A stretch of DNA of 27,914 nucleotides, taken from a virus. Taxonomy: Duplodnaviria; Heunggongvirae; Uroviricota; Caudoviricetes. The stretch lies in IMG/VR virus record IMGVR_UViG_2913118216_000009; one strand, written 5' to 3'. Each line of letters starts with the position of its first letter. Position 1 is the first letter of the stretch. The translations under genes were made by a program, and so were the position numbers. Positions 598-27,618 of this stretch are shown here, piece after piece. A model generated the notes under the pieces. That model was not told where the DNA came from. It saw only the letters and a program-made list of their open reading frames with translations, and made no database searches.

Positions 598-651
598 AAT
601 ACTGCTATCAGTAAGTCCCGAACGTTTCAACTTATCATGTGAGTGTCAGCA

Positions 652-2900: not shown

Positions 2901-3633
2901 GAATCATTCCCTTTATTCCATCAAGATTATCACCAACCAGCATCATGGCAGCGGTGTAAACGGCAGGCTGCTGCGGAATGTCCTTCATCAGTTCCAGTAA
3001 CGTGGTGCCGGTGTCTCCGCTGGCAGTAAAAACCCACGCTCTGGCACTTTTTCCCTGTAAATCATTCAGGCCGCTGGCCACATCACTGATAAGCTGGTCA
3101 CGCAACTGCGTGAACTCGCCCAGCTGTTTTTTCAGCCCTTCGATATCAAACCCGGCACCCGCCACCTTTTGTGCCTGACTGATTGCAGCAGCAGATAAAG
3201 CTGCCCTGCTGGTTGGTACAGACAGTGGAATGGACGCAGGTAACGCTGCGGCGGCTTTCGCCGGGATTTGCATCTTTTCAATAGCCAGCGCTGCGGCGGA
3301 TTGTGCCAGCCGTTTGACCTGCGTGAATGCCGGAGCGGGGAAAATCCCGACCAGGTTATTCAGGCTGGTCATAAAGTTTTCCTGCGTCTGTCCGGTGACC
3401 ATCATAATCACCACGTCCGCATTCCCCCCTGTTCCGGCCAGGCGTTCAGCAAGATAGCGAACAGCATTAACCGGGCTGAGATATGCCCCGTTCGCTGTCT
3501 GCTGTCCCAGCCCATAAATCCACGGATGCGCAGGGACGATCGAACAGTTCAGCGCAGCAACAGAATCTGTGAAGGCCAGACATGCTTCACGCCACATTTC
3601 CAGGCACCTCCGGCCACACAATTTCCGGAGCAT
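2872..3633 (-). CDS. Phage tail-associated protein, function unknown (likely start near 3597)
   Basis: 253-aa ORF immediately downstream of the tail fiber assembly gene, overlapping it by a few codons; Ala-rich central region; no recognisable catalytic motif. Confidence 0.35.
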   Translation of the reverse strand: MLRKLCGRRCLEMWREACLAFTDSVAALNCSIVPAHPWIYGLGQQTANGAYLSPVNAVRYLAERLAGTGGNADVVIMMVTGQTQENFMTSLNNLVGIFPAPAFTQVKRLAQSAAALAIEKMQIPAKAAAALPASIPLSVPTSRAALSAAAISQAQKVAGAGFDIEGLKKQLGEFTQLRDQLISDVASGLNDLQGKSARAWVFTASGDTGTTLLELMKDIPQQPAVYTAAMMLVGDNLDGIKGMIHDFDPDTGA

Positions 3634-4174
3634 CTTCCGGTTGAATACGGTTCAATAAAACCCGGAATTTTTTCCATGCAGTAAGTAGAAGTACTTCTTC
3701 TTCAGTCGCCATGTCTAAATCAACGGCATCCTGCAACGTGGCAATGGCGTCATTGGCCTGTTTAAGCAGGCTTTTCTTTTCGGCGTCTGCCTCGCTGACT
3801 AATGCAATTCGCATGGCCTCCGCATCATCCACCCACGCCTTACCATTCCATTTTTGCCAGGCATTAGCTGGTGCTAACGTGGTTGTCCTTTCCGGATAAG
3901 CGCCTGGCTCGGTGATCACCAGTTCATTACCGTTTTCTGTATCAAACACAACCTCACCACGGTGATCCTCACGGGAAATCCATCTTTGCTTCTCTGAATC
4001 AAAAATCGCCACAAACCCCGCTTTGATTGCCGGTGGCTTTATCGTGGTGCAGTTAGCTGGCAGTCCGGTATGCGCAGGAATAAAAGCATCACCCAAACCA
4101 ATAAATTCATTCGTGTCAGAGCGCAGGTTATAAACGGTAACTGTTTGATCCGTTTCACTCATTTTAAAAGTCAT
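3587..4174 (-). CDS. Tail fiber assembly chaperone (Tfa / P2 gpG-like)
   Basis: 195-aa ORF directly downstream of the tail fiber gene; size, position and C-terminal sequence (EEEVLLLTAWKKFRVLLNRI) are typical of the Tfa family. Confidence 0.7.
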   Translation of the reverse strand: MTFKMSETDQTVTVYNLRSDTNEFIGLGDAFIPAHTGLPANCTTIKPPAIKAGFVAIFDSEKQRWISREDHRGEVVFDTENGNELVITEPGAYPERTTTLAPANAWQKWNGKAWVDDAEAMRIALVSEADAEKKSLLKQANDAIATLQDAVDLDMATEEEVLLLTAWKKFRVLLNRIQPEDAPEIVWPEVPGNVA

Positions 4175-5748
4175 TATGCGAGTCTCACTATGTAGTTAAA
4201 TACGATGTTTTTAACGGTCGTTTCTTCATTGCCCGACGCGGCGACGGTAATGGTGTGACTATGTGCGCCTATTGCTACGGTATGAGAGTGAGCTCCAATT
4301 CCTACAGAATGGCTATGTGCGCCAATCCCTACAATATGAGCATGGTTGCCAGCCAAATCCGTATTACCTGTTGTTACGTTATCGCCGCCCTGACCTCTAT
4401 TGATATCTCCGTTTTGAGTGGCCTGCCCCTTAACATATGTATGAGTATGTGCACCAGTTGTATCGGTTGTTTTGGTTCCGTAATCAAATGTGCTCACAGC
4501 TCTAGTGCCGTAGTCAAAGGATGATGTTGACTTCGTCCCCAGATCGGTACTGAATGCACTAGCAGTGTGGGCATGGGATTTATTGCCATCATCTTCATAG
4601 GACAAAACTGCACGGCCATCAGGTTTTCCTTTGATCGTCTGGCGGCGCATATCAGGAAGAACACCCGATGGGTATACAATAGCCAGTCGCTGGTAAGCCA
4701 CTGGATCAAACACCTGCCCCTGCATGATTGCGTGACCCGCTGGTGGAATATCAGTCGGCCAAGGAAGTGGTACTCCAACCGGCACAACATCGCTAATGCT
4801 TAAGACCGCCAGCTCACCCAGCCCAAGATTTTTTCTGGCTTCCGCCTTGTCATTGATATCGGCAAGGTTTGCATCCTTACGCAAAAAATCGCTGCTGGCC
4901 TGTTGATCGCTCAGACTGCCTTTTGGCCTTAAATCCGTGATGTTGCCATCCACATCAATGCTGGCCACCGCAAATACAAAATGCTGAATACCGTTCTGAA
5001 CATAATCAGTCAGATTTTCTACAACCGTGACTTTACTCTGTACACTCCAGACACTGCTCAGAATCCCTGTCCAGCACACATCCAGCCAGACTTTTACCGA
5101 CATTGTCGTCACTGTAATATCCTGATTCGCATCCAGTGACACACGCAGTCCAGCCACATACCCTGTGCCTTTCGTGACATAAAACTGATTGCCGGTTTTG
5201 GCTACCAGATACCCGTTACCAAAAAACGCCGCCGCGCCATAAATATCTGTATTTTCCAGACGCTGGCGCTCATCAATTCCGGCCAAACGTGCAGTAAAAT
5301 CAATCTGCCAGGTTTCAGCGGGCGTATTAATCCCAGTTTCTGTTTGTGCACCGTTGTACTCCATCAGAAACGAGCGGGTCAGCACGTTCCCCTGTTGCCC
5401 TTCTTTTGTTTTCAGTTTCTGCTGTGCTGGTGCATGGACAATCATTGCCAGCGTACCGCTAGCCTTATTGAGCAGACCAATCCAGTTAAAACTGAAATCC
5501 CCCACATCTGCGCCCAGCACTACGGAATAGACCACCCTATTTTCATCCACCACACCGGTACGGGTAACAGCTTGCCGGTGAACAATCTGTGCTGTCGGGG
5601 GCAACCCTTCATTGCGATCAACAGGGATATCCGCGTTTAAATCCGGCACACTGGCAAAAACAAATTCGTCCAGTAGTACCGGTTCACCTGTTGCGCCCTG
5701 CTGTGCTTTCCAGTTTTCAAACGCCAGTGTGATGGCTGTCTGTGACAT
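4174..5748 (-). CDS. Tail fiber protein (receptor-binding; P2 gpH / Mu S-like N-terminal domain, repeat-rich C-terminal tip)
   Basis: 524-aa ORF; conserved-looking N-terminal fiber domain; C-terminal part has tandem peptide repeats (SxFDYGT x2 and GIGAHSH[ST]V x3-4, i.e. HxH motifs); followed by a Tfa chaperone. Confidence 0.8.
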
Positions 5749-5758
5749 AAAAATCTCC

Positions 5759-6352
5759 TTACAAACTCGCGCTGAATGTTGCGCTGCGGGCTTCCGTCCC
5801 TGCTAACGTCGCCGGGTAAACCACATATTCCCCATGATCCCACCCAGCCCGGATTACCAGGTTTTCAGACGTGATCACCTCAAACTGATAACGGCGGCAT
5901 GTTCGCCCGTACTGGCGGATTATCTGGATCAGCAGCTGCGTGTTGTCTGCAATTTGGCTGTCTGTAACCCGAACCAGAATCACATCCCAGTCGATATTCG
6001 GTTGCCGTTCTAACAGTTCCACATAACCGATGCCCAACCGGTCAAAGATATTGATAAACCCCTGTACTGAACCAGCATCCCGCGCATTCACGAAGGCAAA
6101 AGCCACGCGTTTGCGAAACAGGCTCAACGGTTCACCATCAAAGCGGGTAATATCCCGGTCATAAGCCAGCAGGTTCAGTAATGCCGGTGTACACGTCAGC
6201 GGATCAAACTGATTTATTGGCCAGGTAACCCAGTTGTAAACCTCAGCCCAAAAACGCTGCGCCGTTTTCAGCAATTTCCCCGGTTCGCCTTTATTCATCC
6301 AGGAAGGCAAGACCATCCCGGCCAGCTTTTCCATAAACTCATTCATTATCAA
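5759..6352 (-). CDS. Baseplate wedge / tail protein I-like
   Basis: 197-aa ORF between the baseplate J-like gene and the tail fiber gene, the canonical position of P2 gpI / Mu gp48. Confidence 0.5.
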
Positions 6353-7577
6353 TATTCACCGTCAGTGATTTCAGACGCGGCACGTCCAGTTCACTGGTAA
6401 TGTCTCCGAGCGAAAATGTCAGTGATTCCGTCTGTGCAAAGGTTTTATGAATTTCCCGCCCCAGTTGTGAAAATGAAAACCGTGAATATGGCCACGTCTT
6501 TCTGACGTCAAAATCAGCATTTTCACGAAAAGCGCAGCGGATAATGTTTTCAACGCCATCCTTCAGGCTTTTTCTTTCCTCATCGCTGAAATTATTCAGA
6601 TTCTCGACATAAACCGTAACGGCCAGATCGTGAAACGTTTCCGGCATGGGATAACAATGCATATCATCACCATGCCCGTGATGCCCCTGGGTGTTGATAT
6701 AGTCATTCACTGCATCCAAGAACGGTGCCGATGTCACCCCACTATCCAGCAATAGAAATGCGTTTGCTGTTCCAGGTCCCCTCGGTGCTTCATGCTCAAA
6801 GAAAATCCTATCGATACTCAACCCAGCAACGCTGGCGATCATTGAGCGATAAACCGCATCAGTGTGGTAATTCCCCACCAGATTGAACTGATTGCGACAA
6901 CGCTCGCGCAGTTCATCATCGCTCTCCTCGTCAGCTCCCGGCACGGTCAGCCAGTTTTCCTCACTGGCCACATGGCTGATACCACTGACCGCCACCGGCA
7001 GAATGCGGTAGTATCCAGGCGCAAGGTTATATGCGCCCCCGGTACCAGTGGCTTGCACCGGCAGTAATGCGCTGGCTGCACTGGAAGCGATCACCACATC
7101 TTCAGTGGTAGCCAGCTCATAAACTCGCCCGTTAATGCGTTCTGTCTGGATAACCGTCCCAGCTCTGACCGTCACAACAGCCTTTGTGTCTTCTTTGAAG
7201 AACCGAATTACCCCCTGTGCAGCGCTCGCCGGTTTTGCCGTGACGTTCACAGCCCAGGCCAGCAGACGCAACATGCTCCCGCTGGCCGTGGCCACAAACA
7301 TATTGGCCAGCACGGTTAACACCAGAACATCTTTAAGCCACATCACCGGGGCGGTCACAATGGCGGTGATTAATCGCCAGAACGGTGACATTCGGGATGT
7401 ATTGGTGATAATTCCCTCATCTGCTGCAATCGCATTAAAGCGTTCCCGCACTTCGGCTTCCGTTACCGGCATACCGCTGTCTTTCACCACGTCTTCAAAA
7501 TCAACCTGCGGTTTTTCCGTCATAAATCCACCTGCGCAGAGATCCCGCCAAAATCGTATGTGCTCGCGGTTACCCAC
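6339..7577 (-). CDS. Baseplate J-like protein (gp6 family); probable true start near 7523
   Basis: 412-aa ORF; size and position match Baseplate_J proteins; an internal Met (MTEKPQVDF) would give an ATGA-type overlap with the stop of the upstream gene. Confidence 0.65.
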   Translation of the reverse strand: MGNREHIRFWRDLCAGGFMTEKPQVDFEDVVKDSGMPVTEAEVRERFNAIAADEGIITNTSRMSPFWRLITAIVTAPVMWLKDVLVLTVLANMFVATASGSMLRLLAWAVNVTAKPASAAQGVIRFFKEDTKAVVTVRAGTVIQTERINGRVYELATTEDVVIASSAASALLPVQATGTGGAYNLAPGYYRILPVAVSGISHVASEENWLTVPGADEESDDELRERCRNQFNLVGNYHTDAVYRSMIASVAGLSIDRIFFEHEAPRGPGTANAFLLLDSGVTSAPFLDAVNDYINTQGHHGHGDDMHCYPMPETFHDLAVTVYVENLNNFSDEERKSLKDGVENIIRCAFRENADFDVRKTWPYSRFSFSQLGREIHKTFAQTESLTFSLGDITSELDVPRLKSLTVNIDNE

Positions 7578-10261: not shown

Positions 10262-10544
10262 TAACTCTCTCTCTTAAAATAATTTCACCCACTAACTGAT
10301 TATGACGAGCAGCACACTGACCATATAAATCAAGATAAATCGTCAGTAATTCCGCTGAGTCTTTTCCTGTCGCACCATTGAGGCGCGGCAACTGCGTGGC
10401 ACATTTAGTTTTCAGATTTTCCTGATAACGCACGTTCGGTACCGGCTGCGGCGCTGTTGTACATGCTGACAAACTCATCAGACAGGCAACGATTAGTAAA
10501 AACGGGCTTAAGTATTTCCGTGCGTATCTCTCGCGGTGCCACAT
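10245..10544 (-). CDS. Outer-membrane spanin lipoprotein (Rz1/LysC-like); probable true start near 10478
   Basis: Signal-peptide-like hydrophobic segment followed by a lipobox (LSAC) and a Pro-rich mature region; overlaps the 3' end of the i-spanin gene in another frame. Confidence 0.55.
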   Translation of the reverse strand: MWHRERYARKYLSPFLLIVACLMSLSACTTAPQPVPNVRYQENLKTKCATQLPRLNGATGKDSAELLTIYLDLYGQCAARHNQLVGEIILRERVIDGTN

Positions 10545-10743
10545 TTTTTAACGCCTCCAGTTTATCTTCCAGCGCTCTGGCCGAATCACTGGCAATACCC
10601 TGCATTGCTTTTCGCGATTCATTACCGGCCACCTGCGCCGCTGTATTGATTGCCAACTCTAAGCTATCACGCCGCCAGTCAGCGGTTAGCCAGCCCCAGA
10701 CAAACGCCAGCGCCACCACAACCAACCACTGCCCGCTGCTCAT
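10405..10743 (-). CDS. Inner-membrane spanin (Rz/LysB-like)
   Basis: 112-aa ORF with one N-terminal transmembrane segment (WLVVVALAFVWGWL) and a charged, coiled-coil-like periplasmic part; directly downstream of the endolysin gene; overlapped by the o-spanin gene. Confidence 0.55.
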   Translation of the reverse strand: MSSGQWLVVVALAFVWGWLTADWRRDSLELAINTAAQVAGNESRKAMQGIASDSARALEDKLEALKNVAPREIRTEILKPVFTNRCLSDEFVSMYNSAAAGTERALSGKSEN

Positions 10744-16501: not shown

Positions 16502-17341
16502 TTACAGGAAATTAAATTTCCCGGCTTTATCTTTTATAGTACGCCCCGGTGTACGGGTGTTTTTATTACCCAGTTCGTTAAAGCGGGTTACGATTTCTTT
16601 TGCTTTATCGCGAATTGCCGCAAATTCCTGCGTATCCACCACTTCAGCAATTGTGTCAACATCACCCTGAACCTCATTCAGTTGAGTTTCAATTTTCGCC
16701 ACTCGCGCTTCCAGATCGTTCACCACATTGGCAAGCGCCTGTAATTTATCTTCATCCGGAGCAAGATTATCCTGCGGCGTTTCATCTTCAAACTTTGGCT
16801 TAATACCAAACAGTTTCTGCCAGTTCTTCATTCTTGCTTCCTGTTTAATTTTTCCGTCGCGGGAAATTACACAGCTGTAATATCCCTGCTTTGTTAATTT
16901 ATTGCGCCGACTACTAAAGCGCAGCCGTGTGGTGCCAACGCTGGCAGGTGTATCTGTTACCGCCAGCCCTTTCAGGTAAGTACGCCCGCTACCGCGCCAG
17001 TTATCTTCCGGCTCAATGGAGAAGAACAAAAGCTGATCTTCATGATTTGCGAAAATCAGACGCATATTCGGGCAAAGGCTGACATATAACCGTGCCAGTC
17101 CATCTTCACCATCATTCCAGGTGGCTTCCAGCACTTCACCAAAATTCCCGCAATCATCCTCATGTTCTGGCCAGATTAAAGCGACATAGTGGCTATAGTC
17201 ATAGGTTTCCCCCATATCAATGATCCACTGCCGTTTAATTACCCTGCCATCAACGGTATCCCCTTCAGTAGCAACACACAGCCAGTCAGTTTTTAAATGT
17301 GACATATCCCCCCTGTTCCACTCCCTGACGCTGCAAATCAA
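16502..17341 (-). CDS. Capsid scaffolding protein, P2 gpO family (probable true start near 17305)
   Basis: Contains ATEGDTVDGR near the N-terminus and GLAVTDTPASVGT, motifs I recall from P2 gpO; the internal Met has a G-rich Shine-Dalgarno; divergent from the terminase gene. Confidence 0.8.
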   Translation of the reverse strand: MICSVREWNRGDMSHLKTDWLCVATEGDTVDGRVIKRQWIIDMGETYDYSHYVALIWPEHEDDCGNFGEVLEATWNDGEDGLARLYVSLCPNMRLIFANHEDQLLFFSIEPEDNWRGSGRTYLKGLAVTDTPASVGTTRLRFSSRRNKLTKQGYYSCVISRDGKIKQEARMKNWQKLFGIKPKFEDETPQDNLAPDEDKLQALANVVNDLEARVAKIETQLNEVQGDVDTIAEVVDTQEFAAIRDKAKEIVTRFNELGNKNTRTPGRTIKDKAGKFNFL

Positions 17342-17466
17342 TTATTGCCAAATAAAACCGCCACCGCATTACGCTTTATTCTGAACAGTTCGGTTATAAC
17401 GCTTTACCGAACAGACACGAATTAACACCACCGTTTTTTCATCACAGCCACGGCATAATTATCCGC
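17306..17466. promoter_or_regulatory. Divergent late-promoter region between scaffold and terminase operons, with a candidate activator dyad
   Basis: Intergenic region between divergent head operons; imperfect dyad GTTCGGT-N11-ACCGAAC near 17385-17411 about 55-70 bp upstream of the terminase start. Confidence 0.4.
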
Positions 17467-19242
17467 ATGGCTAAATACTCTGAAGAATTAAAAGGCGTTG
17501 TTCGCGCACTTTATCTGCGCCGCTATACGCCAAAGGAAATCGCATCTGAATTAAATCTGCCGAATGCGCGGATCGTTTACTACTGGGCGGAGAAATACAG
17601 CTGGGCGGATTTGCTCAGTTTTGAAAGCACAGAGGAAGCAATTGAACGCCGTTACCAGCTGCTGGCCAGCCGCGATAACAAAACCGATCTCGACCTGAAA
17701 GAAATGGACATGCTCATTGCTCATGCCACGAAACTGCGTGCGCAGAGTAATAAACACAAAGAGAAAATGGCCAGCGGTCAGAGTTCCGGGCAAGCAGCTG
17801 CGCGGGACAACAATGACAACGAACCACGCAGCAAACGGAAATACAAGAAAAACGATATTACGTCGCTGACGCAGGAGGACTTTGACGCATGGGCTGAAGA
17901 ACATCTTTTTGAATATCAGAAACACCTGCGCAATAACATTGGCCAGCTTGTCAGGAACATCCTGAAAAGCCGCCAGATCGGTGCGACCTGGTATTTTGCG
18001 TTTGAAGCGTTTGAAAACGCGGTGATGACCGGCGATCCGCAAATCTTTCTGTCAGCGTCAAAGGCACAGGCTGAAGTGTTCCGGTCTTACATCGTGAATA
18101 TTGCAGAGCAGTATTTCGGTATTACGCTAACCGGCAACCCGATCCGCTTAAGCAACGGCGCAGAACTGCGTTTTCTCTCCACCAACAAAAACACTGCCCA
18201 GTCCTACAGTGGCCACCTGTACTGTGACGAATATTTCTGGGTGCCAAACTTTGCAAAACTTAACGAAGTGGCCAGCGCAATGGCCACACATGACAAGTGG
18301 CGCACCACCTATTTTTCAACGCCATCGGCAAAAACGCACCAGGCTTACCCGTTCTGGACGGGCGATGAGTGGAAACAGGGCAGTAAAAAACGTGCGGCCA
18401 TTAAGTTTCCGTCCTTTAACGAAATGCGTGACGGCGGGCGACTCTGCCCGGATGGGCAATGGCGCTACGTCATTACGATGGGAGATGCCATTGCGGGCGG
18501 TTTCAACCTGGCGAACATCGAGAAACTTCGCAACCGCTACAACGACGCCACTTTTAACATGCTCTATATGTGCGTGTTCGTTGACAGCAAAGATTCCGTT
18601 TTCAGCTTTTCCGATCTGGAAGCCTGCGGTGTTGAAATCGACACCTGGCAGGATCACAACCCTGATGCAGCGCGGCCATTTGGTGACAGGCCGGTATGGG
18701 GTGGCTTTGACCCGGCTCGCAGCGGTGATTTGTCCTGTTTTGTCATCATCGCACCGCCGATACTCGCCGTGGAGAAATTCCGCGTTCTGAAGGTGATTTA
18801 CTGGAAAGGCATGAACTTCCGGTACCAGGCAAAACAGATCGAGCAATTGTTTAAAAAATACAACTTCACTTATCTGGGTGTGGACGTTACCGGCATTGGC
18901 CAGGGTGTTTTTGACAACATTCAGCATTTTGCCATGCGCGTGGCCGTCCCTATTCGTTACGACCTTAACACCAAAAATCAACTGGTGCTGAAAGCGGTGG
19001 ACGTGGTGGAAAGCCAACGTATTGAGTGGGATAAAAACCTGAAAGAGATCGCTGCCAGCTTTATGTCTGTGCGCCGAACCACCACACAAAGCGGCAACGC
19101 CATGACGTTTGTCGCTGACCGCAGCCAGGATACTGGCCACGCGGAGGCGTTCTGGGCGATTACCCACGGTCTGCATAACGAACCCCTTAACTATGAAAAC
19201 AAACCTAAATCCCGCTGGGGTGTAAGGAAAGAGGCTGCATGA
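17467..19242 (+). CDS. Terminase large (ATPase) subunit, P2 gpP-like
   Basis: 591-aa ORF, size of P2 gpP; directly followed by the portal gene with an ATGA overlap; divergent from the O-N-M-L operon as in P2. Confidence 0.8.
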   Translation: MAKYSEELKGVVRALYLRRYTPKEIASELNLPNARIVYYWAEKYSWADLLSFESTEEAIERRYQLLASRDNKTDLDLKEMDMLIAHATKLRAQSNKHKEKMASGQSSGQAAARDNNDNEPRSKRKYKKNDITSLTQEDFDAWAEEHLFEYQKHLRNNIGQLVRNILKSRQIGATWYFAFEAFENAVMTGDPQIFLSASKAQAEVFRSYIVNIAEQYFGITLTGNPIRLSNGAELRFLSTNKNTAQSYSGHLYCDEYFWVPNFAKLNEVASAMATHDKWRTTYFSTPSAKTHQAYPFWTGDEWKQGSKKRAAIKFPSFNEMRDGGRLCPDGQWRYVITMGDAIAGGFNLANIEKLRNRYNDATFNMLYMCVFVDSKDSVFSFSDLEACGVEIDTWQDHNPDAARPFGDRPVWGGFDPARSGDLSCFVIIAPPILAVEKFRVLKVIYWKGMNFRYQAKQIEQLFKKYNFTYLGVDVTGIGQGVFDNIQHFAMRVAVPIRYDLNTKNQLVLKAVDVVESQRIEWDKNLKEIAASFMSVRRTTTQSGNAMTFVADRSQDTGHAEAFWAITHGLHNEPLNYENKPKSRWGVRKEAA

Positions 19243-20300
19243 GTAAAAAGAAACGCTTTGTTAAGCGCGACCAGCGCGGCGACAAATCAAAAAAGATGAG
19301 CATTATCACATTCGGCAAACCTGAACCGGTTCTGACTACCGGCACAGATTACCGTGATATCTGGTACGACAATGCCGCCGATCACTTCACCCAGCCGATT
19401 GACCGGCTGGCACTCGCACAGCTGATTAATCTTAACGGTCAGCACGGCGGCATCATTCACGCCCGCAAAAACATGATTGTTTCAGATTACTTGGGTGGCG
19501 GACTTATTCACGACCAGCTGGAAGCGGCAGCGTATGACTATATAACCTTTGGGGATATTGCGATTGCCAAAATTCGTAACGGCTGGGGAGACGTGATCGC
19601 ACTTGAACCCTTACCCGGTCTGTATATACGCCGCCGCAAAGTCAGAGATAACGCCCTGGATAAGCCCGGTGACTACGTAGTGTTACAGGAAGGGGAACCG
19701 CAGATATGGCCAGAAGAAGATATTATCTTTATCAAAATGTATGACCCGCAACAGCATATCTACGGACTGCCGGACTACATCGGCGGTGTGCATTCCGCGT
19801 TACTTAACAGTGAAGCGGTCATTTTCCGACGCCGCTACTACCACAACGGTGCACACACAGGCGGAATTCTTTATACCCGCGATCCCAGCATGACGGACGA
19901 AATGGAGGAAGAAATTGAACAGCAGCTGCGTGACAGCAAAGGGATCGGGAACTTCTCCACCATCCTTGTAAACATTCCCGGCGGAGACGGCGACGCCATC
20001 AAGTTCATTGAAATGGGTGATATTTCTGCTAAGGATGAATTTGCCAACATCAAGAACATCAGCGCACAGGACATTCTGAACGCGCACCGTTTCCCTGCCG
20101 GCCTCGCCGGTATTGTCCCGCAGAATACTGCCGGACTGGGGGATGTTGAAAAGGCTGAACGCATTTATAAGAAAAGCGAAATTGCGCCCATCCAGCGCCG
20201 TTTCATGCTGGCCGTTAACAACGATCCCGAAATACCGGAAAGGTTGCACCTAAACTTTGATTTAAGTTACATAGAATCAATAGATAAAGGTGCGGCATGA
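19239..20300 (+). CDS. Portal protein, P2 gpQ-like
   Basis: 353-aa ORF coupled to the terminase large subunit gene; size and order as in P2. Confidence 0.8.
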   Translation: MSKKKRFVKRDQRGDKSKKMSIITFGKPEPVLTTGTDYRDIWYDNAADHFTQPIDRLALAQLINLNGQHGGIIHARKNMIVSDYLGGGLIHDQLEAAAYDYITFGDIAIAKIRNGWGDVIALEPLPGLYIRRRKVRDNALDKPGDYVVLQEGEPQIWPEEDIIFIKMYDPQQHIYGLPDYIGGVHSALLNSEAVIFRRRYYHNGAHTGGILYTRDPSMTDEMEEEIEQQLRDSKGIGNFSTILVNIPGGDGDAIKFIEMGDISAKDEFANIKNISAQDILNAHRFPAGLAGIVPQNTAGLGDVEKAERIYKKSEIAPIQRRFMLAVNNDPEIPERLHLNFDLSYIESIDKGAA

Positions 20301-20620
20301 TGCGAAACTGGCTAAAATCCATGCTTCATTTAACAGCTGGAGCATGGAATATGCGAGTTCTGAAAATCGAATGCCCGGAATGCGGCTCAAAGGCTGTTAT
20401 TCGTAAAACGAACAGGAAGCATCGGCAAATTGCAGATATTTACTGCGCCTGTTCAGATGTTGAATGTGGCCACACATTTGTTATGAATCTGACATTTTCC
20501 CACACTCTCAGCCCCAGCGCTAAAACGGGTGATGCGGTGGTGCAAAAAATACTGAGTGCACTTTCTCCCGCTCAGCGCCAGGTAGCATTAGATTTACTGA
20601 AAGTGACTCCCGCTGCCTAA
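20297..20620 (+). CDS. Ogr/Delta-family zinc-finger late transcription activator (start may be the internal Met near 20351)
   Basis: CPECGSKAVIRKTNRKHRQIADIYCACSDVECGHTF has the same cysteine spacing and Y..C....C..TF pattern as P2 Ogr as I recall it. Confidence 0.65.
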   Translation: MMRNWLKSMLHLTAGAWNMRVLKIECPECGSKAVIRKTNRKHRQIADIYCACSDVECGHTFVMNLTFSHTLSPSAKTGDAVVQKILSALSPAQRQVALDLLKVTPAA

Positions 20621-20800
20621 AAAGCCCCCAGAATGAGGGCTTTTCCCTTCCTTTCTAACCATTTTGTGAACCTCTTCCGCAAGTTCTCCAATCCAGGCCA
20701 AAGCGATTGTTTTTTCTCTCTGGTTACTTTCGTAATCATGGGCAATTTTAGCTAATAACTCAATGCGTTCCAGCTGTGCCGACGCCTCCAAAAGATCCAT
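20594..20800 (-). CDS. Small hypothetical protein downstream of gene A, possibly SOS-regulated (antirepressor-like role is speculative)
   Basis: 68-aa ORF with a GGGGG Shine-Dalgarno before the ATG; preceded by a LexA-box-like palindrome; its 3' end runs through the terminator hairpin, so the true extent is uncertain. Confidence 0.3.
   Translation of the reverse strand: MDLLEASAQLERIELLAKIAHDYESNQREKTIALAWIGELAEEVHKMVRKEGKSPHSGGFLGSGSHFQ
20621..20650. terminator. Rho-independent terminator (possibly bidirectional)
   Basis: Stem AAAGCCC / GGGCTTT with a 9-nt loop directly after the stop codon of the Ogr-like gene, followed by a T-rich tract; the complementary strand also ends in a T-run. Confidence 0.5.
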
Positions 20801-20822
20801 TTAGCCCCCACAAGCAATAGTG

Positions 20823-20840
20823 ACTGGATAAGTATCCAGT
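20823..20840. promoter_or_regulatory. LexA-box-like palindrome (CTG-N10-CAG)
   Basis: ACTGGATAAGTATCCAGT: 8-bp inverted arms with an AT-rich centre, overlapping a TATACT -10-like hexamer on the minus strand about 25 bp upstream of the small ORF. Confidence 0.35.
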
Positions 20841-20925
20841 ATACCGTACACCGTAAAGCACGAATAGTGAAATTTAATTTCCTTCCATCTACTGAGAAAT
20901 GCATGCATTTCACATATTTACCCTG

Positions 20926-22947
20926 CTAGACCCACCCCGGCCATAACTCGTTTAATGGCTCGTTTTGAATCTCTTTAAGCCACCCATTACGGTAAACCAG
21001 TCCCCCTTGGCCAAACATCAAACCACTACCCCGTAGGAGAATGGCTATTTCTTCATTAGAACCGTTAAAACCCCGACTGCATAATTCCAGTTTTAACCGT
21101 CTGAGGATTCCCCCCTCCGTACAGTTATTGACAGAACTCCAAGGGGCGGCGTTGCCGCCAGAAACCCCCGCCTCCGCTGGCGCTTCGGCCAACTTCGCAA
21201 CCTTTTGCCACTTAACCAGACGGGTGCAAACTTCCGAATCAGGAACCAAAGGAGAATAAACCCCCTGTACGCGCTGCACGTCCTCTGCGTACTCGTTGCC
21301 CTGTTCCGTAATTTCATAGGCCAGACGAACAACCAGATCACGGCGGGCAATCAGTGCGCCACCCTGTGCTTGGGTGTATGCAGCCCAATCGCCAACATCA
21401 GCAGCGGCCAGAACCGCATCCATTCTGCGATCTGTCAGCACCAGATCCCGCAACCGACGCAGCTCACGCCAGACGGTTACCGGCGCACCACCAATCTGCT
21501 GAAACTGACGAATGCGCCAGCGTGAAGCCCATGCAGAAACGGACTTAGCCATATCACGCAGGTTTTCGCCGGTTTCTTCGTCCTGCTCACCATCCAACGC
21601 AAAACCATCAATATTTTTTGAAATGTATTTCGCGATGTAGCCCGTGGCTGAACCTTTGTCGGGATCGATAGCTTCAACGTGAAAACGTGCCTTAAGCGCC
21701 TTTTCAGATTGCAGTTCCTCAGAATCGGTAATTCTGGCGTGATAGCAAAGAATATCGCGTACCGTGTCCACGTCCTGCAGACGCATAAAAAGCAACATAT
21801 GCCAGTGCGGTGTCCCGTCATGGTGTGGCTCAACAACCCGAAACCCAAATACATGAATACCCGCACGCGAGATCGCTGCGCGTGCTTTTGCCCATACGCC
21901 GCATAAATAGCGCTGGGTATCCTGCGGTGTACATCCATCCCATTGCGATACAAAGCCACCTTTGCTGTGCACTGCGTGGAAACGTGATGGCGCGGTGATG
22001 GTGTAAAACTCACCGGCCAGCCCTTCTTCATTGGCCATATCTTCAAACCCTCGCATTCTTACCATTAGTTCACATCGACGGATCGCCGGATTTGCAACGC
22101 TGCGGTGCACCATGCTGTCCAGTGCAATGCGCAGCCCCTCATCATTCAGCAGATCAAACTTTTTAAAGAACTCCAGATTCCGCTTTTTCTGGTCTATCCA
22201 TTCGTCCAGTGTTTTGCGGGATACATAAGCGCTGGCCGCTTTTTGTACCTGTCCCACCGCGATGGCCATATGTTCGCGCTGCATATCACGCGCACGTTTA
22301 AGACGTAGGTACCACCATTCCGGCGCCATCATGCGCAGTATCCCGGATTCCGCCTTACGCATTTCCAGTTGACCTTCATTGGCCTCATGTTCAGCCCAGT
22401 ACGGCGGCTGGTTATTCAGCATCAGGCAACCCGCGCAAAGATGGCGGTATGATTCCAAGGTGCGGCGATGCAGCTCTCTGGCGTCGTCAGTGCCGGAGTC
22501 AAACTGTTCGGTGAAGTCATAAAGTGACTGGGAAATCCAACCAGATACCTGGCCAGCCAGTTTTTTAAGATCAGGACGGTCTAGTGACGGCAAGCGCTCC
22601 AGCGACTTACCAAAAGGAAGATCGGCAGCGTCAGCGGCCAGCGAGTAACGCGCAGCCACTTTGCGCAGACGTGGCAATACACTCCCGCCGATAGTCTGGC
22701 GCAGGAATGTATTGGCACAGCGACGCCCGTCACGACCAGCAAACAGCTTTTCGTAACGACGGCCAAAATACCCGGCTAACCAGTCGGGTATCTCATGAAG
22801 GTACCGGGCTCTCCATTCATAATCCTGCGGATTTACAGCCCACAAACGGCGTTCTGTGATTGTCGCGTCTGCCGGTATGCAAGATGCGAAAGTTTCACGC
22901 CGCCACGTATCGACAGCATAGAAGTGTTCCTTTATAGCCAACATCAT
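20926..22947 (-). CDS. Replication initiation endonuclease, P2/186 gpA family (rolling-circle initiator)
   Basis: 673-aa ORF; contains ...HVEAIDPDKGSATGYIAKYISKNIDG... resembling the active-site tyrosine region of GPA-type proteins; last large gene of the early operon. Confidence 0.8.
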   Translation of the reverse strand: MMLAIKEHFYAVDTWRRETFASCIPADATITERRLWAVNPQDYEWRARYLHEIPDWLAGYFGRRYEKLFAGRDGRRCANTFLRQTIGGSVLPRLRKVAARYSLAADAADLPFGKSLERLPSLDRPDLKKLAGQVSGWISQSLYDFTEQFDSGTDDARELHRRTLESYRHLCAGCLMLNNQPPYWAEHEANEGQLEMRKAESGILRMMAPEWWYLRLKRARDMQREHMAIAVGQVQKAASAYVSRKTLDEWIDQKKRNLEFFKKFDLLNDEGLRIALDSMVHRSVANPAIRRCELMVRMRGFEDMANEEGLAGEFYTITAPSRFHAVHSKGGFVSQWDGCTPQDTQRYLCGVWAKARAAISRAGIHVFGFRVVEPHHDGTPHWHMLLFMRLQDVDTVRDILCYHARITDSEELQSEKALKARFHVEAIDPDKGSATGYIAKYISKNIDGFALDGEQDEETGENLRDMAKSVSAWASRWRIRQFQQIGGAPVTVWRELRRLRDLVLTDRRMDAVLAAADVGDWAAYTQAQGGALIARRDLVVRLAYEITEQGNEYAEDVQRVQGVYSPLVPDSEVCTRLVKWQKVAKLAEAPAEAGVSGGNAAPWSSVNNCTEGGILRRLKLELCSRGFNGSNEEIAILLRGSGLMFGQGGLVYRNGWLKEIQNEPLNELWPGWV

Positions 22948-24536: not shown

Positions 24537-25040
24537 TCATATCAGGCCGGTGGCATTGATTGTGACCAGCGCTACCGCAGCGGCCAGGACGGGCGTAGAG
24601 TGAAAACGACTTTCCACGGTATAAGCCAGCACGGATAAGCTACGAATTGCATCGCGGGCGCGATCCAGAATTTGAGTACGACGAGCGGCAGTCATATGGC
24701 AAGTTGATACGGCTTCCCCAGCAATCGCCCCCACGCACGCAGTGGCGCTAAGAGCACACAGTTGCATGTTGCCTTCAGTGGCATTATTCACAGGCACGGA
24801 TGGCAGGCAGTTAATTTGGCTTAACATCCCATCCAGTAAACGTGCATCTTCGGTGTAATCCGTAATGGATATAAGCTCATCGCACGTTAAACGGTGCGGT
24901 TGCGCTGGATTTAGTTTGTTGCGCAGGATCTGCGGCCTTATACCAACGGCAACAGCCACATCTTCAAGATTGTGCTCAATTGCAAATGCTCGGCAAGCCG
25001 CATCAAATCGCGCATGTTTAGAGATCTGGTAATCAAACAT
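24537..25040 (-). CDS. CII-like lysogeny establishment regulator (phage 186 CII type)
   Basis: 167-aa ORF, second gene of the leftward operon diverging from the repressor gene; size and position match 186 CII. Confidence 0.55.
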   Translation of the reverse strand: MFDYQISKHARFDAACRAFAIEHNLEDVAVAVGIRPQILRNKLNPAQPHRLTCDELISITDYTEDARLLDGMLSQINCLPSVPVNNATEGNMQLCALSATACVGAIAGEAVSTCHMTAARRTQILDRARDAIRSLSVLAYTVESRFHSTPVLAAAVALVTINATGLI

Positions 25041-25070: not shown

Positions 25071-25352
25071 TTACGCGTTAAGTGAAATATCACATTCACT
25101 TAAAGCCTGAATGGTTAGCGCGGCCATGTTGACCTCAACCAGGCCTTTCTTCTGCTTACCCTTAGGTTTAATGGGCAATTTCCCGTATTCGATCAGATTT
25201 CTGGCAGTTTCTTTGTTTGTACCAGTACGACGGCAATATTCGTCTAAAGGCAGGTAAGGTTCCGGTATGATGATTGTAATGCTCGGACGCATAAGGCAAA
25301 CTCCATTAGTCAACCTGTACGGTAATACAGGGCTGTAACTGTCAATATTCAC
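25071..25352 (-). CDS. Apl/Cox-like small DNA-binding protein (excisionase / switch regulator); probable start at internal ATG near 25292
   Basis: First gene of the operon divergent from the repressor; about 73 aa from the internal Met; basic helix-turn-helix-like segment (TGTNKETARNLIEYGKL). Confidence 0.5.
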   Translation of the reverse strand: MNIDSYSPVLPYRLTNGVCLMRPSITIIIPEPYLPLDEYCRRTGTNKETARNLIEYGKLPIKPKGKQKKGLVEVNMAALTIQALSECDISLNA

Positions 25353-25411
25353 TTAAACCTACAAAGCAGAGTTTAAACTCGCTTTGAGAAAGATTTCAAG
25401 GAAAAATTTTC
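25293..25411. promoter_or_regulatory. Lysis-lysogeny switch region (divergent promoters and candidate operators)
   Basis: About 120-bp region between divergent Apl-like and CI-like genes; contains inverted repeat CCTGTAC-N5-GTACAGG-like and duplicated TTTAAAC motifs. Confidence 0.45.
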
Positions 25412-25990
25412 GTGAAGCTACAAATTGAATTTTCTCATGGCGGATCAGAAGTCTTGGACAGAGTCATCCAGGCGTATGGTTTCAACACAAAATTAGCCCT
25501 GGCCGAACATCTTGATATAGCAAGTAGCAGCCTGGCTAATCGCTACAAGAGGGATTTTTTTCCAGCAGATATCGTTGTTAGATGCATGGCTGAAACGGGA
25601 GCAACTCTGGAATGGCTTGCGACTGGGCAAGGAAGAAAGTTTAACGATGACGAATTAGACATCATGAAACTGCCGCGTAAGAAGATTGTGGACGGAAAAC
25701 TCTATGATTCCGGTTTGCTAATGCTCGATAAGGTTACTTTTTTACCTGGTAAGCCTTTACCACAGAATCCAATCTGTGTGATTGACAACGCAATGCAGTA
25801 CATTGTTGATCAACACTTTCCCGAAGTTTACGACGATGATTGGTTAGTTGAAATTGAAGGAAAAACAAGTGTGAGAACCCTTACGCGCATCCCCGTAGGC
25901 AAAGTTCGAGTGAGTGGCGTTGGGATGGCATTTGATTGCGCTATCGAAGATATAAAAATTTTAGGTCGTATTATCTTAACTATAAAATAA
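25412..25990 (+). CDS. Immunity repressor, phage 186 CI type
   Basis: 192-aa ORF (GTG start with AAGGAAAAA Shine-Dalgarno), same length as 186 CI as I recall it; transcribed towards the integrase gene and divergent from the Apl/CII operon; no LexA/S24-type cleavage motif seen. Confidence 0.6.
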   Translation: MKLQIEFSHGGSEVLDRVIQAYGFNTKLALAEHLDIASSSLANRYKRDFFPADIVVRCMAETGATLEWLATGQGRKFNDDELDIMKLPRKKIVDGKLYDSGLLMLDKVTFLPGKPLPQNPICVIDNAMQYIVDQHFPEVYDDDWLVEIEGKTSVRTLTRIPVGKVRVSGVGMAFDCAIEDIKILGRIILTIK

Positions 25991-26004
25991 TAAGGAAAAT
26001 TATA

Positions 26005-26574
26005 ATGATAGATTACAAGACTGCATCTAAAGACCAATTAAAAGTAGAAATGAAACGATTGTCTGCCGCTGTTTCAGATACGCCATTTGGTACAAAAAAA
26101 GAATTTTTTCATCTTCCCGAAGTTTTAAACACCGGCGAGGAACCGCTTGGCATAGTAAGCGGTATGATGGATGGCAACACCTGGTTAATAACTTTAACTA
26201 ACCAACGCGTTATCTTCCTCGATAAAGGGATGATATTTGGTGTTAAGCAGGTCGATATTAGCCTTCGTAACATTGTAAGCGTTGGCGGAAAGACTGGACT
26301 GATATTTGGTGAGATAATGATTTCAACAAGCGGACAGAATTACACCATAAAAAACGTTATAAAATCCTCCGTAATTCCTTTTACCAACCTTGTTAATGAG
26401 ACAAGGAATAGTCTGGACAAGCCACAAGTTATCACCGCTCCTACAAGCTCCAACGAAAAATCTTCATTTGATGATGTCATGGATAAAATTGAACGTTTGG
26501 CTGAAATGAAAGCAGAAGGCATTCTTACTGAAGAAGAATTTCAGCAGCAAAAACAACGCATTTTAAACAGCTAA
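26005..26574 (+). CDS. PH-domain plus SHOCT-domain protein (moron between repressor and integrase)
   Basis: ATG at about 26005 with AAGGAAAA Shine-Dalgarno; central region resembles bacterial PH (YdbS/YokE-like) domains; C-terminus IERLAEMKAEGILTEEEFQQQKQRIL matches the SHOCT motif; strongly AT-rich. Confidence 0.6.
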   Translation: MIDYKTASKDQLKVEMKRLSAAVSDTPFGTKKEFFHLPEVLNTGEEPLGIVSGMMDGNTWLITLTNQRVIFLDKGMIFGVKQVDISLRNIVSVGGKTGLIFGEIMISTSGQNYTIKNVIKSSVIPFTNLVNETRNSLDKPQVITAPTSSNEKSSFDDVMDKIERLAEMKAEGILTEEEFQQQKQRILNS

Positions 26575-26577
26575 GCT

Positions 26578-27618
26578 ATGTCTGTAAGAAAATTAACAAA
26601 TGGCCAGTGGATTGCCGATTTCTACACGGTGGATCGAAGCAATGGTAAAGCCGGTAAGCGTATTCGTAAAAAATTCGCTACAAAAGGCGAAGCCCTGGCC
26701 TACGAGAACTATACGCTTCAGCAAGTGGAGAACTCCCCCTGGCTTGGCGAGGGTAAAGACCTCCGTACTCTAAGCGACCTAATCAACATGTGGTACGAAC
26801 GCCACGGCGTAGCTTTGCGCAACGGTCAAAAGCGTAAAGACGCAATGACATGGGCGGCGGAGTGTATGGGATTCCCGCTGGCCACAGAGTTTAATGCTCA
26901 ACTGTTTACAGCATACCGCGCAAAAAGGCTTGATGGGCATTATGCCCGCACTAACAGAGTATCCAAGGTTTCCCCGAAAACAATGAACCTTGAACATGCT
27001 TACTTTCTGGCTATGTTCAATGAGCTTAAACGGATTGGAGAATGGTCAGCCCCTAACCCACTGGAAAACGTCAGACAGTATCGCACTGATGAAACCGAAA
27101 TGGCTTTCCTCACTGCTGAAGAAATTGATCGGCTTTTGCTGGAATGCAAACGCAGTAAAGTAAGTTACTTAGAGTTAGTAGTAAAAATTTGCCTGGCGAC
27201 CGGCGCAAGGTGGAATGAAGCGGCGACACTCAAAAGCTCCCAGATTGCTGGCGGAAAAGTCACCTTCATAAAAACAAAAGGGAAAAGGAACCGTACCATT
27301 CCCTTAGATGATGAACTTCTGGCTGAAATTTCGGAAACAAAAGGCGCTCTGTTTCCGAAGCCCTGCTATAACGCTTTTCGTTCCGCCCTGGAACGTGCAG
27401 GTATTGAATTGCCTTCTGGTCAGCTAACCCACGTATTACGCCATACATTTGCCAGCCACTTTATGATGAATGGCGGGAACATTCTGGTTCTGCAAAAAAT
27501 TCTCGGCCACGCTGACATCACTATGACAATGCGTTATGCCCATTTCGCCCCAAGCCACCTTGAAGATGCTATGCGACTTAACCCCTTAAAATGTCGCAAA
27601 AATGTCGCTGCAGCTTAG
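26578..27618 (+). CDS. int: Tyrosine integrase (P2/186 family site-specific recombinase)
   Basis: 346-aa ORF; C-terminal catalytic region HVLRHTFASHFMMNGGNILVLQKILGHADITMTMRYAHF with the conserved R...H-x-x-R...Y arrangement; located at the prophage end. Confidence 0.9.
   Translation: MSVRKLTNGQWIADFYTVDRSNGKAGKRIRKKFATKGEALAYENYTLQQVENSPWLGEGKDLRTLSDLINMWYERHGVALRNGQKRKDAMTWAAECMGFPLATEFNAQLFTAYRAKRLDGHYARTNRVSKVSPKTMNLEHAYFLAMFNELKRIGEWSAPNPLENVRQYRTDETEMAFLTAEEIDRLLLECKRSKVSYLELVVKICLATGARWNEAATLKSSQIAGGKVTFIKTKGKRNRTIPLDDELLAEISETKGALFPKPCYNAFRSALERAGIELPSGQLTHVLRHTFASHFMMNGGNILVLQKILGHADITMTMRYAHFAPSHLEDAMRLNPLKCRKNVAAA

Follow-up and report, generated by a model that had tools for sequence, protein, structure and literature searches.

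An Ogr/Delta-family gene as the probable last cistron of the terminase-portal operon of a prophage with P2-type genes, facing a Tum-like gene

Proteins of the Ogr/Delta family activate late promoters through contact with the alpha subunit of RNA polymerase. In P2, the late promoters carry a TGT-N12-ACA dyad about 55 bp upstream, and both P2 Ogr and 186 B reinforce their own synthesis from the end of the tail operons. The P2 record places ogr between D and int, as an earlier sequence-only reading of the DNA studied here had stated. In other phages ogr follows the portal gene, an order stated for K139 and Smhb1 (PMC8537503), and the portal gene followed by ogr, with the replication gene convergent, is the known and published layout of K139/HP1/ESSI-2-type Peduoviridae. 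The cos site of HP1-type phages adjoins attP (PMC2771037). A literature search, whose coverage did not include the K139 and HP1 genome papers, found no experiment on the K139/HP1-type Ogr subtype.

The window, i.e. the whole stretch of 27,914 nucleotides that was analysed, belongs to a prophage in which P2-type O, P, Q and A genes are combined with 186-type cI/cII. The operon considered here contains the following features.

17467..19242, plus strand: terminase large subunit gene (P2 P homologue), opening the operon; Pfam Terminase_6N, Terminase_6C and Terminase_5
19239..20300, plus strand: portal gene (P2 Q homologue); Pfam Phage_portal, with relatives annotated portal
20297..20350, plus strand: in-frame upstream ORF extension, probably untranslated spacer, as judged from codon differences, the Shine-Dalgarno sequence and the extents of homologues
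20351..20620, plus strand: ogr, Ogr/Delta-family zinc-finger gene of the K139 orf13 type, 89 aa, probable final cistron of the P-Q operon
20619..20657, plus strand: predicted intrinsic terminator of the P-Q-ogr operon, with a stem-loop at 20624-20640 and a T-rich tail from 20641

The gene at 20351-20620 is the sole Ogr/Delta-family zinc-finger gene in the prophage. Its open reading frame (20297-20620, plus strand) begins in overlap with the portal stop codon (ATGA, 20297-20300), and residues 25-71 of the translation match the Pfam profile Ogr_Delta (PF04606) over its full length (profile positions 1-47) with 70.7 bits and an E-value of 9.7e-20, far above chance level; the curated gathering cut-off is 26.3 bits. 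The family phrog_603, 'transcriptional regulator', matches the protein with an E-value of 2e-38, spanning residues 1-86. In the alignment with P2 Ogr and 186 B, C8, C11, C34 and C39 (89-aa numbering) are invariant columns, and the spacing C-X2-C-X22-C-X4-C is identical in the three proteins. A regular-expression search of the six frames of the window returned this motif once, leaving a single Ogr-type ORF, and a size of 89 aa (107 aa with the upstream ATG) fits the small single-domain Ogr/Delta proteins of about 70-90 aa. The sequence-only reading had called an Ogr/Delta-type zinc-finger gene here and named alignment with P2 Ogr and 186 B as the check; the profile score, the aligned cysteines with family spacing and the single copy in the prophage all uphold that call. 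The NCBIfam equivalog model NF007241 (PRK09678) scores the protein at 16.3 bits, its cut-off being 116. As classified by these profiles, it is a member of the PF04606 family and not an Ogr equivalog.

As had been proposed, the terminase-portal unit ends with this gene. It follows P and Q, and between P and ogr neither a terminator nor a sigma-70-like promoter was found by scanning the window, ev015, ESSI-2 and Yen324, with a promoter consensus scan that is crude and could be escaped by weak or activator-dependent promoters. The claim that ogr comes after the portal gene and adjoins the end of A holds in its first part only, since 305 bp with another gene in between separate ogr from the end of A. 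The order portal to ogr is common to ESSI-2, ev015, ev239, Yersinia YenM_324, Salmonella SW3/SI7 and K139, and HP1 carries a split ogr copy at the corresponding place. Gene and position are kept across at least six Peduoviridae genera; those with orf13 homologues after the portal gene are Longwoodvirus, Seongnamvirus, Quadragintavirus, Tresduoquattuorvirus, Irrigatiovirus and Evevirus. The locus is present in 29 complete E. coli genomes, the best at ~94-95% identity (the prophage of E. coli 1919D3 being 94% identical), and among the E. coli genomes listed the gene is annotated 'ogr/Delta-like zinc finger family protein'. The importance of the locus beyond correct annotation is small. A search of the window with Rfam gave no match, and one IMG/VR provirus begins exactly at window position 598.

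The true start of ogr is probably the ATG at 20351, which lies 50 nt past the portal stop and gives 89 aa, and not the one at 20297, so that 18 codons at the head of the ORF would be untranslated. Synonymous and non-synonymous differences stand at 0:4, 0:6 and 2:7 in the extension (20297-20350) and at 9:2, 17:2 and 29:3 in the ogr core. The Shine-Dalgarno sequence GGAG (20339-20342), located 8 nt upstream of ATG 20351, is invariant in five relatives. Distant homologues (ev239 and Vibrio phages) align only from residues 15-21 of the 107-aa ORF, and those of SW3/SI7 from residue 9. RefSeq annotations of the relatives are divided between the long and the short form. The correction is useful; database records disagree on the ogr start. 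Pairing of an inverted repeat at 20318-20348 would mask the Shine-Dalgarno sequence that serves ATG 20351; the repeat was rejected as a conserved element, has three mismatches in ev015 and is treated as lineage-specific or due to chance.

Where might the product of ogr act? Two features of the spacer between scaffold gene O (minus strand) and terminase gene P (plus strand) bear on this question.

17389..17411, no strand assigned: dyad TTCGGTTATAACGCTTTACCGAA, an exact inverted repeat in the O-P spacer; candidate activator site for both divergent late promoters
17454..17459, plus strand: conserved -10-like hexamer CATAAT, separated by 7 nt from the start codon of P; possible core of an activator-dependent P promoter

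A search of the late promoter regions for binding dyads, as suggested earlier, gave a mixed outcome. No P2-type dyad (searched as TGT-N11-14-ACA) occurs in the O-P spacer, but a different and conserved one, TTCGG-N13-CCGAA, does. In each of the complete genomes of ev015, Yen324 and ESSI-2, TTCGG-N12-15-CCGAA is present once, always in the O-P spacer; it is also found in K139 and is absent from P2 and 186. Measured from the centre of the dyad, the start codon of P is 66-67 nt away in six of the seven phages, K139 included. The clade probably uses an activator-binding dyad other than that of P2. The hexamer CATAAT is kept in the window, ev015, ESSI-2, Yen324 and SW3, with TATGAT standing at this offset in K139. 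No good -35 element was found near CATAAT, as expected of an activated promoter, and the hexamer is possibly the core of such a promoter for P, with a geometry made uncertain by its location just 7 nt before the start codon. CI-operator-like repeats shared with the cI/apl switch were detected neither near ogr nor in the O-P spacer.

It could be asked whether a zinc-ribbon relative of Ogr has another job at this place, such as that of a packaging accessory, a restriction alleviation protein or a non-late regulator, with late control located elsewhere. The gene adjoins the packaging genes, its product is only 23-26% identical to P2 Ogr and 186 B, and the C-terminal 35 residues are unlike those of P2 Ogr; the low identity and the lack of a P2-type dyad in the O-P spacer fit such a role and likewise count against a late activator, as does the equivalog score below its cut-off. 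The protein also matches other zinc ribbons, namely Lar and the topoisomerase zinc finger, but these matches are weak and below their own cut-offs, whereas Ogr_Delta scores nearly three times its cut-off. Moreover, the gene content of the prophage offers no other candidate for a late activator, and the conserved dyad is positioned at a fixed distance from a late gene start. A different job is highly improbable in our judgement.

The reading that we prefer, and consider likely, is that ogr is the last cistron of the P-Q operon, that its product activates both late operons via the dyad and so reinforces itself, and that 20650-20925 holds a Tum-like gene and not cos. The Ogr-type protein would bind TTCGG-N13-CCGAA (17389-17411) within the 160 bp that separate the divergent late operons and activate both of them, P-Q-ogr rightward and O-to-tail leftward, the latter block extending over 16.7 kb without sizeable gaps. 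Activation and binding at this site are both deduced from homology and position. Located inside the activated operon, ogr would boost its own synthesis; such positive feedback is plausible by analogy and not new, as it already occurs in P2 and 186. The dyad thus offers a simple, testable one-site model of a late switch. A feedback loop alone needs a starter, which counts against this reading, as does the lack of CI-operator-like repeats near ogr and the O-P spacer. Basal activity of the P promoter might supply the first Ogr-type molecules, or else a weak promoter within the portal gene that escaped recognition.

The need for a starter is also an argument for a different account, in which ogr is transcribed chiefly from a dedicated early or middle promoter located in the 3′-terminal part of the portal gene; the location behind Q would then be without significance for regulation, and feedback would play a marginal role. 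Dedicated promoters exist in P2 (Pogr) and 186 (pB), in the 66-80 bp before ogr or B. The K139 record annotates a putative promoter, P13, before orf13, in a 70-nt spacer that also has a CTGT-N8-ACAG box; this counts against the proposed mechanism, and an independent ogr promoter may therefore exist here too, where ogr is preceded by a Shine-Dalgarno sequence of its own and by 50 nt of untranslated spacer. The same crude scan, however, showed no sigma-70-like plus-strand match upstream of ogr in the window, ev015, ESSI-2 or Yen324, the hexamer TAGAAT (20272-20277) reads CAGAAT in ev015 and S.Kent, and the absence of nearby CI-operator-like repeats likewise speaks against a promoter of this kind. 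We regard an expression of ogr mainly from its own promoter as rather unlikely.

Under the preferred reading, the P-Q-ogr operon ends at a hairpin directly after ogr. Its GC core (20624-20640) is enclosed by A5 (20619-20623) and T4 (20641-20644); on the plus strand the stem is followed by TTTTCCCTTCCTTTC, and on the minus strand the same stem is followed by TTTTTA, A5 being T5 on that strand. The hairpin and T-tract, as well as the T-run on the opposite strand, are thus present as described before. Folding energies of -10.9 to -13.3 kcal/mol for the plus strand and about -17.5 to -20 kcal/mol for the minus strand were obtained, values that alone are unremarkable relative to shuffled sequences (z -1.4 and -1.0), and a simple terminator consensus scan missed the hairpin because of a C.A mismatch in the plus-strand stem. 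Its significance comes not from energy but from a position that is conserved despite different stems: in eight of nine relatives a hairpin with a T-run is found 2-12 nt past the ogr stop, the stems in ev239 and SW3/SI7 being unrelated. On this comparison, the predicted plus-strand intrinsic terminator is conserved and closes the P-Q-ogr operon. The suggestion of a bidirectional terminator fares less well. There are T-runs on both strands here, but that of the minus strand is limited to the window and ev239 (absent in ev015, S.Kent, ESSI-2, Yen324 and SW3), and a converging reading frame crosses the hairpin. A separation of convergent late and early transcription is right as to convergence; the partner, however, is a Tum-like gene downstream of A that is preceded by a LexA box, and not simply early transcription.

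20594..20800, minus strand: Tum-like small gene, 68 aa, putative SOS-induced antirepressor; conserved ORF with phrog_698 and 186 Tum similarity
20822..20841, no strand assigned: LexA (SOS) box GACTGGATAAGTATCCAGTA, a CTG-N10-CAG palindrome in front of the Tum-like gene

The Tum-like frame shares 27 nt with the 3′ end of the ogr ORF, counting the stop codon, and is kept in ev015, S.Kent, ESSI-2 and Yen324. Its product is matched by phrog_698 (E 9.5e-22) and shows 34% identity to Tum of 186 over residues 11-42 of the latter (E 2e-6 in a pairwise comparison); a tblastn search with the ORF reached S.Kent only, and the phrog_698 profile was needed for wider detection. The LexA palindrome is kept in all five relatives, the others reading ACTGTATATAAACACAGTA or similar, and in ESSI-2 a promoter-like TTTACA-16-TATACT overlaps it. 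As in the p95-tum arrangement of 186, the Tum-like gene is situated right downstream of gene A and on the strand of A, with the LexA box ~30 nt before its start codon. Unlike the 146-aa Tum of 186, the protein here lacks the DinI-like C-terminal half, orf97 is missing, and the gene converges on ogr, whereas tum in 186 faces cos. In K139 the converging gene belongs to phrog_5581 instead of phrog_698.

The cos site had been expected within 20650-20925. This stretch is filled by the Tum-like gene and its LexA box, a useful point for annotation, and the cos of the lineage, GCGGGTGCGGTGTAG, lies ~300 bp left of window base 1 in the source contig (L086 5513-5784). It is defined by the ends of two records, that of ESSI-2 having the 15-nt GCGGGTGCGGTGTAG at both ends and that of ev015 breaking within the same 15-mer. 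The cos region is conserved in four relatives; its place on the attP side, past the last tail gene, matches the published HP1-type position (PMC2771037). No copy was found within the window with the ESSI-2-type cos profile, and the P2 and 186 cos junctions gave only chance 9-14-mers. In this prophage, cargo genes are situated on both sides of cos. A loss of cos from the prophage had been suspected from the 54 bp between an acetyltransferase gene and the last tail gene and was discarded when the source contig showed the site.

One could still take 20650-20925 as non-coding DNA with cos, and the hairpin as a two-way terminator that parts late from early transcription as in P2 and 186. In those phages cos is 160-190 bp past the portal gene, after the terminator tQ/tW, the length of the interval between ogr and A (~300 bp) is conserved in ESSI-2, ev015 and Yen324, and T-runs flank the stem on both sides in the window. 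Yet the stretch has no similarity to P2 or 186 cos and carries the phrog_698/Tum-like gene with its LexA-box promoter; a methylase gene begins 27 bp past ogr in SW3; and the ESSI-2 ends, the ev015 break and the contig all put GCGGGTGCGGTGTAG outside the window, on the side where HP1-type cos adjoins attP. A cos site beside ogr has hardly any probability left.

We tentatively extend the preferred reading to the HP1/K139/ESSI-2 subtype, which may possess a dyad of its own, TTCGG-N13/14-CCGAA, with one control region, two operons and a promoterless last-cistron activator in its enterobacterial members. If this were true, the minimal late regulon of the enterobacterial members would be a self-latching switch, which converging SOS-induced transcription of the Tum gene across the shared hairpin might modulate.

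Among the described systems, the K139 orf13 clade is the closest (56-94% identity; K139 orf13 itself 56%, enterobacterial phages 59-94%). The similarity runs through the whole protein, including the part past the zinc finger, with the invariant YCAC-x3-ECGHTFV...SHT(L/I)SPS, and in both cases the gene follows P and Q, converges with the replication module and is accompanied by the same O-P spacer dyad. K139 differs in an extra small orf14 and in its promoter-annotated spacer, which has an SOS-like box, while ogr here follows the portal stop with no recognisable promoter. The position of cos past the last tail gene, and not past the portal gene, is shared with HP1 and phiCTX; the cohesive end deposited for ESSI-2 has 15 nt, is partly similar to the P2 19-mer GGCGAGGCGGGGAAAGCAC and contrasts with the 9-nt cosL feature of the HP1 record. 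With P2 Ogr and 186 B, which together with P4 Delta founded PF04606, the protein shares the small C4 zinc finger. As here, ogr or B is at the 3′ end of a late operon, with an annotated terminator that also ends this operon, and in 186 two divergent head-gene promoters share one B site, as is proposed for the dyad here. Different from P2 and 186, in which the gene is located between tail gene D and att/int and encodes 72 aa, ogr here follows the portal gene and encodes 89 aa with another C-terminal part, no dedicated promoter was found for it, its product stays below the equivalog cut-off, and its candidate site is TTCGG-N13-CCGAA instead of the TGT-N12-ACA of P2.

The window is an almost complete P2-family (Peduoviridae) prophage. 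Its final 127 bases belong to the host gene mntS, and the integration site, between mntR and mntS, is the same in 23 complete E. coli genomes. The closest phage records are Escherichia phages ESSI2_ev040/ev015, with 95% identity across P-Q-ogr-A; Cronobacter phage ESSI-2 is 79% identical. The layout is as follows.

652-2355, minus: baseplate/tail gene, last of the late gene block that starts at O
16502-17341, minus: scaffold gene O
17467-19242, plus: terminase gene P
19239-20300, plus: portal gene Q
20297-20620, plus: open reading frame of the late-activator-type zinc-finger gene (ogr)
20624-20640: stem-loop, terminator, flanked by A5 and T4
20594-20800, minus: Tum-like small gene, 68 aa
20822-20841: LexA box
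20926-22947, minus: replication gene A, grouped with a minus-strand DUF2732 gene, a Cox/Apl-like gene and cII
24537-25040, minus: cII
25412-25990, plus: 186-type cI
25936-26574, plus: gene for a bacterial PH-domain (bPH_3) and SHOCT protein, between cI and int
26578-27618, plus: integrase

The bPH_3/SHOCT frame shares 55 nt with the end of cI and may be a lysogenic-conversion or defence gene; ev015 has no gene at that spot. The sequence ATTCACTTAAA is repeated at 25092-25104 and 25345-25357, on either side of the Cox/Apl-like gene; like the flanking sites of 186, it may serve as an operator for CI or Apl.

The assignment of ogr to the Ogr/Delta family, made in the sequence-only reading, was borne out. 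The product scores 70.7 bits against Pfam Ogr_Delta (PF04606; cut-off 26.3). When it is aligned with the Ogr and B sequences of the P2 and 186 records, its four cysteines occupy invariant columns and keep the same C-X2-C-X22-C-X4-C spacing, so the mismatched spacing that would have spoken against the assignment is not seen. Identity to these two proteins is only 23-26%, and the product falls far under the cut-off of the NCBIfam equivalog model for Ogr. Identity is 56% to K139 orf13 and 59-94% to the homologues of ESSI-2, ev015, ev239, YenM_324 (a Yersinia phage) and SW3 (a Salmonella phage), and the product matches phrog_603 ('transcriptional regulator'). It is a member of the family, yet of a separate subtype. 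A search of the whole window with a profile of these subtype proteins and a motif regular expression gave no second ogr copy.

The first ATG, at 20297, shares bases with the portal stop (ATGA), and five relatives also keep this frame open. However, the 18 codons preceding ATG 20351 change between relatives almost entirely non-synonymously (synonymous:non-synonymous 0:4, 0:6 and 2:7), whereas the core codons change mostly synonymously (9:2, 17:2 and 29:3). An invariant GGAG lies 8 nt 5' of ATG 20351, and matches to distant homologues (ev239, Vibrio phages) start at residue 15-21 of the 107-aa frame, or at residue 9 for SW3/SI7. These three observations disfavour 20297 as the start, and the gene is probably 20351-20620, encoding 89 aa; both long and short forms are in use in RefSeq records. 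An inverted repeat, TCCATGCTTCA/TGGAGCATGGA at 20318-20348, would pair the Shine-Dalgarno GGAG of ATG 20351; the repeat arises from window-specific substitutions, is not kept in ev015, S.Kent or ESSI-2, and was regarded as lineage-specific or a chance feature.

The position of ogr after the portal gene, convergent with the replication module, holds likewise in ESSI-2, ev015, ev239, YenM_324, SW3/SI7 and K139. HP1 (NC_001697.1) has an unannotated copy at the equivalent place (10417-10709, minus strand). As deposited, this copy is divided between two frames, with the CTVC half in one and YCACKNPLCGHRFVMN in the other; the cause is a frameshift or else an old sequencing error. The locus is carried by 29 complete E. 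coli genomes (best about 94-95% identical), and among the E. coli matches listed the gene is annotated 'ogr/Delta-like zinc finger family protein'. A homologue between the portal and replication endonuclease genes was described for K139 and Smhb1 in 2021 (PMC8537503), and further P2-like phages carry ogr at yet other places (PMC3091744, PMC5694545). Given the shared order and the published layout, the arrangement was already known; the feature is of a known kind at a known place and adds little to existing knowledge. In K139, the spacer before orf13 holds AACTGTACAAAAACACAGCT (3936-3955), a CTGT-N8-ACAG SOS-box-like palindrome overlapping the annotated putative promoter P13, which hints at direct LexA control of that homologue; the window has no box of this kind ahead of ogr.

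The hairpin after ogr had been read as a possible bidirectional terminator, and only the plus-strand half of this claim is well supported. A hairpin with a T-run lies 2-12 nt 3' of the ogr stop in eight of nine relatives, even with unrelated stems (GGCACC.../...GGTGCC in ev239, AGCCCGC.../...GCGGGCT in SW3/SI7). Terminator function is argued from this conserved position, since the folding energies are not unusual against shuffles. The plus-strand stem has one C.A mismatch, which becomes a G.U pair in the stronger minus-strand fold. The minus-strand T-run is confined to the window and ev239, and the converging gene's reading frame crosses the hairpin in all five close relatives, so termination in that direction is doubtful while that gene is translated.

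Between ogr and A, where cos had been expected (20650-20925), lies a gene. Its 68-aa Tum-like frame is retained, along with the motif IAL-x-W(I/L)-x-E(L/M), by ev015, S.Kent, ESSI-2 and YenM_324; it matches phrog_698 (E 9.5e-22) and is 34% identical to residues 11-42 of the 186 antirepressor Tum (pairwise E 2e-6). It is probably an SOS-inducible antirepressor of the 186-type immunity system. About 30 nt 5' of it lies the LexA box, the palindrome GACTGGATAAGTATCCAGTA with core CTG-N10-CAG; relatives have ACTGTATATAAACACAGTA or similar, CTGT...ACAG against CTGG...CCAG in the window, and ESSI-2 has a promoter-like TTTACA-16-TATACT overlapping its box. Just upstream of the box, a 7-bp insertion in the window (about 20845-20851) could change promoter spacing. 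The arrangement matches that of 186 (A, then p95 with its LexA site, then tum), although, unlike 186 Tum, the Tum-like gene converges on ogr.

The window holds no copy of an ESSI-2-type cos. The ESSI-2 record carries the same 15 bases, GCGGGTGCGGTGTAG, at its start and end, as is also the case for the 19-base cohesive end in the P2 record, and the ev015 record breaks within the same 15-mer. ESSI-2, ev015, YenM_324 and the E. coli 1919D3 prophage all keep about 270 bp around it, with invariant CAGGCGGGTGCGGTGTAG(T/C)GCCGTTT; this stretch lies on the attP side, past the last tail gene. The 15-mer partly resembles the P2 19-mer and is flanked by repeated CTGAAAAA/TTTTCAG motifs. The source contig (L086; GCA_005781225.1 VATT01000011.1), found by an exact-protein look-up with the window's first gene, is identical to window 1-6597 and matches a cos-region profile at 226 bits.

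L086 5513-5784; L013 5251-5591; L014 27795-27938; ends of L015 and of the ev015 record (L010): cos region of the ESSI-2 lineage, between cargo genes and the last tail gene
L086 3482-5822, together with window 1-597: attL-side cargo (left of cos: a 297-aa protein, a DUF4325 protein, a PIN-like protein)

Thus the cos region lies about 220-490 bp to the left of window base 1, its core about 300 bp left, and not at the place expected between ogr and A; this also rules out a cos-less prophage. Cargo at this spot varies among relatives. A hexapeptide-repeat acetyltransferase gene (window 1-597, plus) forms an insertion that separates cos from the last tail gene; none of 5,426 complete E. coli genomes matches it at the DNA level, and the most similar protein (49% identity) is from Edwardsiella. 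At its start (bases 14-47), the ev015 record (NC_049395.1) has TCGTCGGCAGCGTCAGATGTGTATAAGAGACAG, which we take to be a Nextera transposase adapter, together with 13 stray bases; assembly seems to have left this artefact at the physical cos end.

No sizeable gaps separate the genes of the minus-strand late block, so the late regulon appears to consist of two divergent operons. The search for activator dyads suggested by the sequence-only reading gave a conserved TTCGG-N13-CCGAA in the O-P spacer, but no P2-type TGT-N12-ACA. The spacer is 160 bp long and contains a single perfect dyad, TTCGGTTATAACGCTTTACCGAA (17389-17411). Each of the complete genomes covered (ev015, YenM_324, ESSI-2) has exactly one TTCGG-N12-15-CCGAA, in every case in this spacer; K139 has the dyad too, HP1 has a degenerate form, and P2 and 186 lack it. 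The dyad centre is 66-67 nt from the P start codon (ATG) in six of seven phages, and the much-diverged K139 is one of the six. We infer that the dyad is the predicted binding site of this Ogr subtype, one site serving both promoters. A conserved CATAAT (17454-17459) ends only 7 nt before the terminase ATG, with no Shine-Dalgarno sequence between the two (17454-17469); were it the -10 element, the terminase mRNA would have little or no leader.

Between P and ogr, neither a sigma-70-like promoter nor a terminator was found in the window or three relatives, so the simplest reading is that ogr closes the P operon as its last cistron. Its product would activate both divergent late operons from the single dyad and so boost its own transcription. 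The positive feedback proposed earlier is a reasonable hypothesis with precedent in related phages. A single B site serves p12 and pV in 186, and the same layout is proposed here. Nor is the feedback principle new, being already present in the P2 and 186 records, where the terminators after ogr/B are annotated as also ending the late tail operon. Compared with P2 and 186, it is a different late operon that carries ogr here, and a dedicated promoter is apparently lacking.
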